Source: an uncultured cyanobacterium | GTDB lineage: Bacteria > Cyanobacteriota > Cyanobacteriia > Cyanobacteriales > CAWUOF01 | Length of the DNA: 64,000 nt | NCBI GenBank assembly: GCA_963744145.1 | Contig: CAVUSO010000001.1 | Coordinates: 7,488,001-7,552,000 of the forward strand | Direction: 5' to 3' | Shown: positions 19,852 through 35,878 of the stretch, one piece after another | How the letters are laid out: every line of letters starts with the position of its first letter | How positions within the stretch are numbered: position 1 is the stretch's first letter | The notes under the pieces: model-generated | The model's input: only the letters and a program-made list of their open reading frames with translations | Database searches by the model: none | Told to the model about the DNA's origin: nothing | Position numbers and translations under genes: made by a program

Positions 19852-19919
19852 AGAAACCGCCCGAACGTCAAATCGGGCGGAGTGTGGTGTGAGGAGTGAA
19901 CGGAAACATGCGTCTCCGC
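19852..19919 (-). ncRNA. yfr1: Yfr1 cyanobacterial small RNA
   Basis: Minus strand GCGGAGACGCATGTTTCCGT-TCACTCCTCACACCACACT-CCGCCCGA..TCGGGCGG-TTTCTT: two hairpins flanking the conserved ACUCCUCACAC motif, in the canonical guaB-trxA position. Confidence 0.93.
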
Positions 19920-32202: not shown

Positions 32203-33780
32203 TTATAATTCTCCGATCGCTAACATTTGAATCAATCGCGGTATCCCTGGATCAAACCCTGCTAAATCCCAAGACAAGGGATCTGAGGGATCGACCAAAG
32301 TAATCCGATCGGGTGCAAGAGTAATATACACCGCTTTAATATGACGATTTATTTGATCGCGGTATTTTTTCAATGCTTGACTAGGATGGGGATAACCTAC
32401 CCAACTTTCACTATCAGTCCAAAAACAAATCACATCGGCTTTAAAATTATGATCAATCATCCATTCATAAGCAACACTAGCATTCGTACCACCAAAATTT
32501 TGATTGCTCGCTTTAGTCATTGCTGAACTAAAAGAATCCTGGTGAGAAATTTTGAGATTGCGAAACTCAGTAGCAAAACCTCGGATCGCATAATGTTTTT
32601 CAGCTTTTGCGGTTACTAAGGACATAACTGTGGCAATTTCACAACAACTAAGTCCGACGGAAGTCACCAAACTAGACATCGAGCCAGAAACATCGATCGC
32701 GTGCATAAATACTTTTCCAGTTGGTTCGATAATTTCCAAGGACATCTCCACAGCTTTTTCTAGAATCTCCACAATTTTATCAACAGGATGCCAAGTTTTG
32801 TGAGTGCGTCCTAACTTTCCTTGAGACTGGTAAGTTTTCAAAGCTTTCAACACACTAATTGGATGAATATATCCTTTTCGTAAATGATCTTTGTGATTTA
32901 AAATAGCTTCAACTCGGGCTAAATTTTCTAATTCATTTGGTGCTAAAATACCAATTTCTGTTAAAGAACCCAAATTACGCAATAAAGCACCGATCGGCAT
33001 TTCTTGAAATAATAATTGCCATGCTTGTTTATCCATTATCCCAATCGGAGCAGCCATTTCATGGGTTAAATGACCTTGAGCGATCGCGAGATAAGTTTGT
33101 TCAGGATTACGTTTTAGCCATTCATACCACCAAATTTGGGCTAATTCTGGAGCGGGAATTTCTGCTGGTAAATCTTCCCAACCTTTGACTACCCAATTAA
33201 ACAATAGTTGATGAGAAATTGTCGGTGGCTTAACATGAAATAACCGTAACGCATCACGATTAGTAAACCCATGACGTTGCCGATACTTTAATAATTGATA
33301 AGCTAAACTTTTGACATCTGAATTAGTGAGCCAATTTTTCCCAACTGCGCGAATAATTGCCCCAAAACCGCGTAAAGACTTAGTATAACTTAACCATTCA
33401 TAAAAATGACTACCAGTGCGAACAACTTGTGGAAAAATTTCTTGAAACGCTTTTTTTGCTTGGCGTGATTCACCCATTGATAATAAGACTAAAGCAAAAA
33501 TTGGAGCGCTCTGATTAATCGCATTGCCATCACTAGCATAAAGAATTTCATCAGCTACTTGTCGGGGATCAGTCGCGATCGCTTGATTTAAAACTGCGAC
33601 AAAGTCTTCAGTTAATTCAGACTGACCAGCATAATAAGTGCTTTGAGCAGTACCAATTAACAAACAACGTCGCAGCAGTTTCCAAATTCCCGCATTAAAC
33701 ATAAATCCTCCTGAACGTCCACGGATCATCTCCGCTTCGCGTCCAGGAATCGGCTGAATTTGAGGTGTATTGGTCATCAT
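32203..33780 (-). CDS. rsr: Ro60/Rsr ortholog (TROVE + VWA domain RNA-binding protein)
   Basis: LRRCLLIGT, YQLLKYRQRHG...RDALRL.H, MPIGALLRNLG, AIDVSGSM (MIDAS), GGT, WTDSESW. Start reassigned to ATG 33780 because the track's upstream extension lies inside a tRNA-like RNA. Confidence 0.92.
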   Translation of the reverse strand: MMTNTPQIQPIPGREAEMIRGRSGGFMFNAGIWKLLRRCLLIGTAQSTYYAGQSELTEDFVAVLNQAIATDPRQVADEILYASDGNAINQSAPIFALVLLSMGESRQAKKAFQEIFPQVVRTGSHFYEWLSYTKSLRGFGAIIRAVGKNWLTNSDVKSLAYQLLKYRQRHGFTNRDALRLFHVKPPTISHQLLFNWVVKGWEDLPAEIPAPELAQIWWYEWLKRNPEQTYLAIAQGHLTHEMAAPIGIMDKQAWQLLFQEMPIGALLRNLGSLTEIGILAPNELENLARVEAILNHKDHLRKGYIHPISVLKALKTYQSQGKLGRTHKTWHPVDKIVEILEKAVEMSLEIIEPTGKVFMHAIDVSGSMSSLVTSVGLSCCEIATVMSLVTAKAEKHYAIRGFATEFRNLKISHQDSFSSAMTKASNQNFGGTNASVAYEWMIDHNFKADVICFWTDSESWVGYPHPSQALKKYRDQINRHIKAVYITLAPDRITLVDPSDPLSWDLAGFDPGIPRLIQMLAIGEL

Positions 33781-33784
33781 ATTA

Positions 33785-33927
33785 TGGGGTAGCGGGACGG
33801 GATTTGAACCCGTAACTTCCGGAAAATTAGTCAAGGATCAGTCTAAAAGTAGATTGTAATCAATAAACCTCGACTTTTCGGCCCATTGAGGCAAGGTTGG
33901 CACTCTACCAATTGAGTTATCCGCTAC
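33785..33927 (-). ncRNA. tRNA-framed Y-RNA-like RNA 1 (permuted YrlA-like; encoded CCA)
   Basis: Acceptor GTAGCGGA/CCCGCTAC + C + CCA; D arm ACTC-AATTGGTA-GAGT; T arm ACGGG-TTCAAAT-CCCGT; Ro-type helix CTTGCCT-caat-GGGCCGAA; helix AGTCGAGG/CCTTGACT. Confidence 0.8.
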
Positions 33928-33954
33928 AAGAAATTAGGAAACGAGAGGATAGAA

Positions 33955-34083
33955 GGTGACGGAGCAGGATTTGAACCTGCGTCTCCTGCGGGGTAGGCAA
34001 TAACCCTCAATTATTCGGCCCTGACGGACAAGTTGTTAATCAAGGATGTTTTTGGTATCCTGAGCCTCTAGACGATCCGTCAC
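33955..34083 (-). ncRNA. tRNA-framed Y-RNA-like RNA 2 (permuted YrlA-like)
   Basis: Acceptor GTGACGGA/TCCGTCAC; D arm TCGTCTAGAGGCTCAGGATAC; T arm GCAGG-TTCAAAT-CCTGC; helix ATCCTTGATTA/TAATTGAGGGT enclosing CTTGTCC-gtca-GGGCCGAA. Confidence 0.8.
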
Positions 34084-34296
34084 ATCATCAATATTATATT
34101 AGGTCTGGTGGTTTTGATGCTGCCACCCAAGCTAGACCATACATCACTAGCGTGAATATTCCAGGATTACATCGCGATCATCCCCAGACTAGATCGGGTT
34201 TAGTCTAAGTTTCGGTAATTTTACTGTAGACAACATCGATTTTCGATGTTCTACTTGTGTGATAAGGTGGTCAACGAATAGGATGAGAAAAATAAA

Positions 34297-34485
34297 ATGA
34301 ATAAAATAACTAACAACGAAGTTATTGGTGACAGCGAAGTTATTGGTGACAATGAATTTAGTGAACAGATCCGTGAACTAAGTAACGAGGAATTTGATCA
34401 CGAGGTGGTTAAGGAAAATACTGACACTTCTGATTGGAAATTCTCCGGACAAGATTACTTCTGGTTGGCTTTTGGGTGTCATTAA
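34297..34485 (+). CDS. Small acidic hypothetical peptide
   Basis: 62-aa ORF with a purine-rich upstream sequence (AGGATGAG); internal 18-nt duplication (EVIGD x2); acidic body and aromatic C-terminus. Confidence 0.5.
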   Translation: MNKITNNEVIGDSEVIGDNEFSEQIRELSNEEFDHEVVKENTDTSDWKFSGQDYFWLAFGCH

Positions 34486-34597: not shown

Positions 34598-35878
34598 CTA
34601 TGATTTTACTGGGAATGTAGCCAGAATTTTTTTAGCAAAGATGAAAGCTTGTTCAGTTGTGGAAATTTTACCTTCAATATGTGCTAACTGAATTTGAGTA
34701 AGTAACCAACCAACTTGGGGACCTGGAGGAATTTGTAAAGCTTGGATCAAATCCTTACCATTAAGCAAAGGAATCGGGTGAGCAACTAAATCATCAGGAT
34801 CAAGATAGCGCTGAATTAAAGGTGCGATCGCATCTAGGTCAGCTCCTACAGCTAAAGCTAAAACAACTATAGCCGGAAAACCTTTCTCTAAAGTCCGAAA
34901 GAAAAAAAACTGCTCAGGTAAAGAAAAATCAGCTGCTGTTTGGAGCGATCGCAACTTCGGTAAAAATTGCAGCAGGACATTAACCGCATGAATTTCTGCC
35001 CGACTAGATTTTAACTCCCGCATCAACAACGGATCAAGCTCAGTTTTGGCAATTCCCGGAGATAGTAAACTGGTTAACTTCGCGATCGCTAACCAACTCA
35101 AAGGATACATTCCTCGGACTTGAACCGATAAATCTAATACTAATTGCGGCCAATTTTCTGTTAAAATTACTACTGCACGATCAATTGCAGCTAATTGTAC
35201 TAAACTCTCAGCCGTAATATCTAATTGTAAAGCTGCTGATAATCCCCCATCTTCCCAAGCAAGAGTTAACCATCTTGTCCCCTGGGAATGATTAAGCAAA
35301 TAGCTAATTTCCATCAAAATTCGCTCTTTTGCTACTCTTACCAATAAATCAGCACAATTACGCATTGCTACTCTTGTATCTGTTGCGATCGTCAAACCTA
35401 ATTGAGCAGCTTGTCGATAACCTCGTAGGATTCGTAACGGATCATCCTCCAAATTAGCTTGGGAAATCATCCGAATGATTCTCCGTTCCAAATCAACCTG
35501 ACCTTGAAGTGGGTCAAAAAAAACTCTCTGGTGAGGACTATAGGCGATCGCATTAATGGTATAATCCCGTCGATGCAAGTCTTGCGTTAAAGTAGCACCT
35601 TCCTGTTGAGCAAAATCTGCTGTCCCATGAGCAAATACAACTCGCGCAATTTGTCGCTGGGGATCTAACAAGACAAAACCACCATCACACACTTGAGCAA
35701 TCTTCCGAGCTGTCTTAACCGCATTTACAGGTAAGACAAAATCCAAATCAAAATAATCGGACTTTCGTCCTAGCAAAGCATCTCGGACTGAACCACCAAC
35801 CAAATAAGCAGACTCTGGTAATAAACTTAAACTAAATGGCCAATGTTCAGGAGATAATGCTAGAAAATCACTGTCCAT
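34598..35878 (-). CDS. tRNA nucleotidyltransferase / poly(A) polymerase family (probably CC-adding type)
   Basis: LVGGSVRDALL..DLDF, DL.RRDYTINAIA, EDDPLRILR motifs; short form without DHH/CBS domains. Confidence 0.88.
   Translation of the reverse strand: MDSDFLALSPEHWPFSLSLLPESAYLVGGSVRDALLGRKSDYFDLDFVLPVNAVKTARKIAQVCDGGFVLLDPQRQIARVVFAHGTADFAQQEGATLTQDLHRRDYTINAIAYSPHQRVFFDPLQGQVDLERRIIRMISQANLEDDPLRILRGYRQAAQLGLTIATDTRVAMRNCADLLVRVAKERILMEISYLLNHSQGTRWLTLAWEDGGLSAALQLDITAESLVQLAAIDRAVVILTENWPQLVLDLSVQVRGMYPLSWLAIAKLTSLLSPGIAKTELDPLLMRELKSSRAEIHAVNVLLQFLPKLRSLQTAADFSLPEQFFFFRTLEKGFPAIVVLALAVGADLDAIAPLIQRYLDPDDLVAHPIPLLNGKDLIQALQIPPGPQVGWLLTQIQLAHIEGKISTTEQAFIFAKKILATFPVKS

Follow-up and report, generated by a model that had tools for sequence, protein, structure and literature searches.

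A 64,000-nucleotide (nt) stretch of the genome of an uncultured cyanobacterium (GenBank assembly GCA_963744145.1, contig CAVUSO010000001.1, positions 7,488,001 to 7,552,000; hereafter "the window") raises the question of which RNAs are encoded next to its Ro60 (rsr) gene, and where these RNAs begin and end. Directly 5' of the gene lie two tandem elements, units 1 and 2, which combine the arms of a tRNA with a hairpin resembling the Ro60-binding helix of Y RNAs. In YrlA, the bacterial Y RNA described in the available part of Chen et al. 2014 (PMC4201824), the Ro60-binding stem is made by the ends of the RNA, the T arm precedes the D arm, and the acceptor stem is a closed stem-loop. A preliminary description of the window proposed the reversed topology, with an open acceptor stem and a loop-closed Ro helix. 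Our comparison with related loci supports this proposal by acceptor covariation, conserved tetraloops in the Ro helix, loci with a single unit, and genome-encoded CCA ends, and the tRNA-frame topology is well supported by this comparative evidence. We regard it as probable, at roughly three chances in four, that the units are the Y RNA component of the Ro60 (Rsr) particle in cyanobacteria, i.e. homologs of YrlA in native rather than permuted tRNA order.

A conserved tRNA-like unit next to Ro60

The presence of two tRNA-framed units on the minus strand ahead of Ro60 is confirmed: both were found where the preliminary description had placed them, Pfam identifies the product of the adjoining gene as Ro60, and the acceptor stem, D arm and T arm could be located in each unit (Table 1). 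In unit 1 the acceptor strands GUGACGGA and UCCGUCAC (34083-34076 with 33963-33956) form 8/8 pairs, and in unit 2, which has the acceptor GUAGCGG / CCGCUAC, positions 33927-33920 and 33796-33789 form 7/8 pairs, A7/C66 being a mismatch. The hairpin with a bulged C that had been reported to replace the anticodon arm is present in both units with the same strand GGGCCGAA, and so is the GGUUAU-like segment after it; GAGGGUUAUUG occupies positions 34008-33998 of unit 1, 3' of the Ro hairpin, and GAGGUUUAUUG positions 33871-33861 of unit 2. The Ro hairpin of unit 1 is surrounded by an AUCCUU/GAGGGU helix, and the unit has the tail CUUC, without CCA. Unit 2 reads in the order acceptor, D arm, Ro hairpin, local hairpin GAGGUUUAUUG...GAUCCUUGA, T arm, acceptor, and C + CCA. 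Minimum-energy folding of single units gives a full cloverleaf-like shape, and the thermodynamic folds of the two units are modestly unusual (z -2.29 and -2.19).

Existing RNA models recognise these elements in part. The Rfam tRNA model (RF00005), run with relaxed filters, matched unit 2 with 34.8 bits (gathering threshold 29) and a 78-nt insert in the anticodon arm, left unit 1 unmatched, and gave 44.9 and 36.4 bits to two units at other loci. The scan with Y RNA models and tRNA finders suggested by the preliminary description was otherwise less productive: the metazoan-type Rfam Y_RNA model had no match at E<=10 in 33600-34400, ARAGORN called neither unit, and the YrlA model (RF02553) stayed below its threshold (see below). 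The tmRNA model produced weak matches to units from the T arm only. A decoding anticodon stem-loop is not present in the units, as the AUCCUU/GAGGGU helix, together with the Ro hairpin, occupies its place; some units have an extra hairpin after the D arm, with loops of 5-7 nt and without a conserved anticodon-loop pattern.

To place the units in a family we searched genome contigs with the Ro60 protein and kept the best 80 of 268 relatives as loci, all cyanobacterial, with 1.5 kb flanks. T-arm motifs recur ahead of nearly all 80 Ro60 genes. A first alignment comprised 72 units chosen for perfect acceptor pairing, for which the helices returned by RNAalifold were those of the acceptor, the D and T arms and the Ro hairpin, with compensatory changes in 17 of 22 pairs. 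Because this set had been selected for acceptor pairing, a covariance model, R1, was built with the acceptor columns unpaired. R1 found 347 matches at E<=0.001 in the window and the 80 loci, with all of the 300 matches listed on the Ro60 strand, and an nhmmer profile gave 345 unit hits. Since the acceptor-free model scores the two window units at 103.5 and 87.6 bits, and the Rfam tRNA model also detects unit 2, the pattern goes beyond chance.

The adjacency to rsr noted in the window holds for the related loci as well, where units flank Ro60. The number of upstream units per locus is 0 in 1, 1 in 4, 2 in 6, 3 in 28, 4 in 26, 5 in 13, 6 in 1 and 7 in 1 of the 80 loci, the distal ones reaching ~1.4 kb from the gene with their build unchanged. 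Two types can be distinguished: type A (unit 1) has the AUCCUU/GAGGGU helix around the Ro hairpin, 99.2% paired in the family, and type B (unit 2 and a unit at a second locus of the same genome) has an AYCCUU strand 3' of GAGGGUUAUCG, in a local hairpin. Analysis of the phylogenetic distribution revealed Ro60 in 19 of 151 sampled genomes of the phylum; strong units, mostly adjoining Ro60, occur in 13/13 Ro60-positive genomes of the same class, and in only 1/6 of those elsewhere in the phylum.

Units also occur after the Ro60 stop codon, one in 59/80 loci and two in 1 locus. These downstream units lie ~10-250 nt past the stop (L001-L080; e.g. L027:3079-3229) and represent a distinct type: of five that were inspected, all lack the D arm, three have a UUCG-type Ro loop, and four have a U run after the acceptor 3' strand. 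Judged from its sequence, the downstream unit is an acceptor/T-arm minihelix plus a Y module.

The acceptor-free model served to align its 150 best matches, in which we examined the helices of the tRNA frame, and the compensatory changes that the preliminary description had called for are present in both critical helices. Pairing reaches 99.2% in the acceptor helix, where 7/8 pairs have compensatory changes (e.g. CG 94 / UA 44, GC 96 / AU 41), and 99.3% in the Ro helix, where 3/6 pairs have them; the D stem is 96.9% and the T stem 99.2% paired. In all, four helices of the family show such changes. The whole structure is 98.2% paired, vs 37-54% with slid partners, and 0/500 shuffles reach the observed values. 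The commonest Ro strand is AGGCCGA (183/339 units), and the bulged base is C in 273/339. The loop of the Ro helix has 4 nt in 318/345 units, being GNRA in 234 and UUCG in 37 (271/345 together). GNRA and UUCG are the two classic stable tetraloop classes, and their conservation makes sense only if the loop belongs to the mature RNA.

The D and T loops covary too, which supports a tRNA elbow in the units. A T loop with UC goes with GG in the D loop in 197 units (7 lack GG), UGCAAAU with AG in place of the D-loop GG in 17/18, and UGAAAAU with a GG-less D loop in 17/17; in the latter two classes related units share these states. Such a pattern suggests that the elbow contacts 18:55 and 19:56 covary. 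The variant elbow units come from L021, L027, L029, L030, L042, L051 and other loci.

Ends of the units and alternative readings

CCA is encoded by 130/192 distal upstream units: the 8-nt 3' strand is followed by N + CCA in 99 of them and immediately by CCA in the other 31. In 221 fully aligned units the acceptor of 8 base pairs is followed by N + CCA in 97 (N is A in 90), and 18 have 8 base pairs (G:C) + CCA; a subset of units ends in G-1:C73 + CCA, which we take to be the histidine identity set. In the genome to which the window belongs, CCA is encoded by only 5/63 ARAGORN tRNA genes; two dense tRNA gene arrays (G000:C1:5725312-5727612 and 7372835-7374134) hold four of these five. Downstream units lead into U tracts. 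On the 5' side, the 10 nt ahead of the first acceptor G are conserved (...AAAUUUUYAU before G), with U at -1 in 187/220 and A at -2 in 170/220 units, and RNase P prefers U at -1. From the encoded CCA, the AU leader in front of G, and spacers of 1-4 nt in one genome we infer that units would be matured by RNase P/Z from a polycistronic precursor. A compact array is seen at L094:320-720 (G162:C213), where three head-to-tail units with spacers of 4 and 1 nt (...GACAU before G, ...CCA-U before G) are followed by the Ro60 leader.

Several observations count against the release of every unit as a free, tRNA-framed RNA. Ro-proximal units end in CUUU or CUUC in 58/62 cases, without CCA, and as unit 1 likewise lacks CCA, some units may stay in the rsr leader. 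ARAGORN called no tRNA or tmRNA anywhere in the window. The window loops, GUCA and CAAU, lie outside the stable tetraloop classes. The strands of the Ro helix pair nearly as well between units as within them (5.84 vs 5.88 of 6 pairs), and since this helix is nearly invariant it cannot separate the two frames. In a weak match to the Rfam YrlA model (33983-33902, 23.8 bits, gathering threshold 69) the T arm comes from unit 1 and the D arm from unit 2, as in canonical YrlA read over the junction, so that two frames are possible for the window units. Finally, Chen et al. 2014 (PMC4201824) give their cyanobacterial rows, both in the YrlA-II seed and in the available Table S1, in that canonical frame.

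On one alternative reading the units, or at least the gene-proximal one, would be a structured rsr leader that binds Ro60 for feedback or sets the 5' end of the mRNA. The units do lie on the same strand directly ahead of the gene, the window ATG being 4 nt beyond the CCA of unit 2, CCA is missing from the Ro-proximal units at other loci, and in 73/80 loci a look-alike of the Ro hairpin comes after the proximal units and overlaps with the Shine-Dalgarno sequence. We nevertheless find a purely cis-acting role unlikely: distal units (to ~1.4 kb upstream) and downstream units share the build of the proximal ones, and the encoded CCA and complete acceptors indicate released molecules. A leader role and a free-RNA role are, moreover, mutually compatible. 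The look-alike has the form UUUUUGCC(C/U)-GNAA-(G/A)GGC(C/U)GGGAG and lies ~10-45 nt before the Ro60 ATG (L001-L080; e.g. L006:1444-1470), not in the window. Its 3' strand enters the Shine-Dalgarno sequence and its closing pair covaries (C-G 44, U-A 26, U-G 3), and it is a plausible site of Ro60 feedback on translation.

The published frame offers another reading, according to which the mature RNA would run from GGNCCGA of one unit through its T arm, the spacer "acceptor stem" and the next D arm to UUGNCC. In the window this would yield one Y RNA of ~130 nt (~34021-33889) with its ends in the Ro stem, and the YrlA match over the unit junction, the pairing of Ro strands between units and the published rows all agree with it. 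We consider it quite unlikely. Acceptor strands pair 8/8 within units in 204/230 cases (mean 7.85), vs 43/132 (mean 7.05) when the 3' strand of one unit (n) is set against the 5' strand of its successor (n+1), a background level, as random unit pairs reach 7.12. The YrlA match is far under the gathering threshold, and in six other related loci examined there is no YrlA match at E<=0.001. Nor would conservation of the GNRA and UUCG caps make sense if the RNA ended there. Such an RNA is also impossible at single-unit loci, namely L002 and L006, which have one unit in all in the 1.5 kb flanks of the gene, also with filters off, and the second Ro60 locus of the window's own genome (see below). Moreover, the cross-unit frame would orphan the outer halves of arrays, yet these are intact: the acceptor has 8/8 pairs in 63/64 Ro-proximal units and in 46/52 first units. 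Several published rows even enter the Ro60 open reading frame (distances -20 to -42 in the available Table S1, PMC4201824).

That the units are merely decayed, functionless tRNA genes or tRNA-derived repeats gathered near rsr is scarcely credible: their D arms resemble those of various tRNA species (unit 1 being like tRNA-Glu of the same genome) and the upstream copy number varies from 0 to 7, but the compensatory changes in four helices, the invariant Ro motif, the strict co-occurrence with Ro60 and, among the matches listed, the orientation shared with the gene all contradict decay.

Our preferred reading, that of Y RNAs in native tRNA order, goes beyond the gene anatomy, its conservation and the covariation in the tRNA frame, which are direct results of the analysis. 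Each unit would give an RNA of ~125-145 nt, whose own 5' and 3' ends form an acceptor of usually 8 base pairs, which would retain the tRNA elbow (D and T arms), and in which a tetraloop-capped Ro60-binding helix (UUGNCC / GGNCCGA with a bulged C) would substitute for the anticodon arm. The units would be transcribed together with or beside rsr, often in arrays, and excised in the fashion of tRNAs, with RNase P cutting at the G after the conserved ...AU leader and trimming on the 3' side leaving NCCA, often encoded in the genome. Ro60 would be bound through the hairpin of the unit, and the tRNA-like body with its free acceptor end could serve as an effector or gating module.

Relation to known Y RNAs and tRNA mimics

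The loci studied here are not new to the literature. According to the available text of Chen et al. 2014 (PMC4201824), few cyanobacterial YrlAs were found at first, some with "a longer acceptor stem", and three rows from Calothrix, Stanieria and Gloeocapsa were added to a second seed (YrlA-II). Each of these rows is in the cross-unit frame: it starts at AGGCCGA, passes the T arm, ...CCA and a spacer, and reaches CTTGTCTGAA after the next GTGG...D arm. The ends of cyanobacterial YrlAs are there described as "not experimentally determined". Table S1 of the same paper has ~30 cyanobacterial rows, among whose strains are Synechococcus sp. PCC 7002, Nostoc punctiforme PCC 73102 and Cyanothece ATCC 51142; some rows tile contiguously and some overlap the open reading frame. 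Many stop ~103-108 nt short of the gene, which by our counting falls within the Ro hairpin of the proximal unit. Wang et al. 2018 (10.1101/312249) call the cyanobacterial acceptor stems "much longer", describe YrlAs as circular permutations of tRNAs that lack a free CCA end, and report for every characterized Y RNA a long stem in which the 5' and 3' ends pair; they also cite a model in which YrlA originated from dimeric tRNA transcripts.

The tRNA-framed reading was not found in the available parts of Chen et al. 2014 (where "permut" occurs 0 times) or of Wang et al. 2018, nor did literature searches turn it up. We found no further work on cyanobacterial Y RNAs beyond these two papers; Sim and Wolin 2018 and Burroughs and Aravind 2016 may discuss tRNA-framed RNAs near rsr. 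On the novelty that the preliminary description had left open, the answer is thus divided: loci of the same kind are already in the 2014 YrlA-II seed and Table S1, and they are listed there in the other frame. Known are the loci as YrlA; new are the open acceptor, the internal tetraloop-capped Ro site and the frequently encoded CCA.

Comparison with YrlA proper (RF02553; e.g. from S. Typhimurium) reveals a common location next to rsr, a Ro helix with a GNCGAA-type strand and a bulge, and a tRNA-like elbow, and the cyanobacterial units can be aligned to the YrlA-II seed over the GGUUAUC-type segment, the V hairpin and the T arm. However, YrlA has its T arm before the D arm, a loop-closed acceptor and a Ro stem made from its ends, whereas the cyanobacterial units have the order D arm, Ro hairpin, T arm, an open acceptor and a tetraloop on the Ro helix; many of them end in NCCA, and they do not reach the Rfam YrlA threshold. 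The "YrlA with longer acceptor stem" of Stanieria, Gloeocapsa and Calothrix (Fig. S1, supplementary text 2 and Table S1 of Chen et al. 2014, in their available form) is of the same kind in locus and sequence, and the difference lies in the frame, published as cross-unit, whereas our results speak for a tRNA frame within each unit.

A free CCA end on a Y RNA has a precedent, since the YrlA of Mycobacterium smegmatis is cleaved by RNase P and CCA-tailed in vivo (PMC4201824, available text) and is likewise a Ro60-bound Y RNA with an opened acceptor. There a permuted gene gives rise to a nicked RNA in two pieces, whereas the cyanobacterial unit would be one chain, often with encoded CCA. The tRNA-like domain of tmRNA and viral tRNA-like structures are also tRNA mimics with a free CCA acceptor and no decoding anticodon (10.1101/312249, available text), but their sequences are unrelated, and they neither contain a Ro-binding helix nor are linked to rsr. 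The b7a-tRNA of Burroughs and Aravind 2016, which we know through the Discussion of 10.1101/312249 alone, may overlap with the cyanobacterial units.

Should the units be processed in the tRNA frame, Y RNAs would for the first time be seen to carry the Ro60 site on an internal hairpin and to end in a free NCCA, often encoded in the gene. The annotation of cyanobacterial YrlAs would then need correction, as the published frame drops the first and last half-units of arrays and enters the rsr reading frame in some rows. The partner of the tRNA-like module could be addressed with RNase P, the CCA enzyme, synthetases and EF-Tu, and the units would give concrete form to an intermediate in the model, cited in 10.1101/312249, that derives YrlA from dimeric tRNA-like transcripts. 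A bolder joint claim is that these Y RNAs are true substrates of tRNA end maturation, perhaps also of synthetases, and that the unpermuted form is ancestral to all permuted YrlAs, via tandem duplication and subsequent loss of the outer halves; we hold it to be rather doubtful. Were the units indeed substrates of the tRNA machinery, the Ro60 particle would be tied to tRNA or translation quality control.

The Ro60 gene and its neighbourhood

Table 1. Positions in the window of the two units, their parts and adjoining features
Feature	Position	Strand	Basis and remarks
Unit 1, tRNA-framed Y RNA type A (probable)	33956..34083	minus	model R1 103.5 bits; full-length alignment with other cyanobacterial units
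D arm of unit 1	34073-34057	minus	sequence; resembles D arm of tRNA-Glu in this genome
Ro-binding hairpin of unit 1 (predicted), bulged C	34015..34031	minus	UUGUCC 34031-34026, loop GUCA, GGGCCGA 34021-34015
T arm of unit 1, GCAGG-UUCAAAU-CCUGC	33964..33980	minus	sequence; family T stem 99.2% paired
Unit 2, tRNA-framed Y RNA type B (probable)	33785..33927	minus	model R1 87.6 bits; Rfam tRNA 34.8 bits
D arm of unit 2	33917-33902	minus	sequence
Ro-binding hairpin of unit 2 (predicted), bulged C	33878..33894	minus	UUGCCU 33894-33889, loop CAAU, GGGCCGA 33884-33878
T arm of unit 2, ACGGG-UUCAAAU-CCCGU	33797..33813	minus	sequence; family T stem 99.2% paired
Genome-encoded CCA of unit 2	33785..33787	minus	after acceptor and one base C (33788-33785 = C + CCA), then UAAU
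Ro60/Rsr gene	32203..33780	minus	525-amino-acid translation; Pfam vWA_Ro60 1.1e-35, TROVE 1.9e-14
TATAAT hexamer, candidate -10 box	34093..34098	minus	read from sequence; ends 9 nt before first G of unit 1
tRNA nucleotidyltransferase gene (CCA-adding / poly(A) polymerase family), upstream of units	34598..35878	minus	Pfam PolyA_pol 6.2e-19, PolyA_pol_RNAbd, tRNA_NucTran2_2

The Ro60 ATG at 33780 follows the CCA of unit 2 at a distance of 4 nt (CCA-UAAU-AUG, window 33778-33788), and no recognisable Shine-Dalgarno sequence was found ahead of it. If unit 2 is excised in the fashion of a tRNA, the Ro60 mRNA of the window would be nearly leaderless. A scan for promoters and terminators around the units revealed nothing convincing (5 promoter-like sites vs 2.6 expected, 0 terminators). 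The TATAAT hexamer in front of unit 1 is a candidate for its -10 box; it was not listed by the promoter scan, having no accompanying -35 match.

The gene upstream of the units encodes a tRNA nucleotidyltransferase, one of two PolyA_pol-family genes in this genome, and a homolog occupies the equivalent position in 7/80 loci (L007, L008, L009, L011, L014, L015 and L016). A CCA-enzyme paralog dedicated to the units was considered and rejected: orthologs of the window enzyme (52-57% identity) lie far from rsr in 5/5 other genomes checked. For this reason it is probably a housekeeping enzyme that is a neighbour of rsr only sometimes.

The same genome has a second Ro60 gene outside the window (G000:C1:5213985-5215731, minus; locus L085). 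Directly upstream of it lies a single type-B unit ending in ...UCCACUAC-A-CCA, and its leader contains a weaker hairpin, UUGUCC-UGAC-GGGCUGA.

At the gathering thresholds of Rfam the only match in the whole window, away from the units, is the small RNA Yfr1, which is matched over its full length at 19855-19919 on the minus strand with 61.5 bits.

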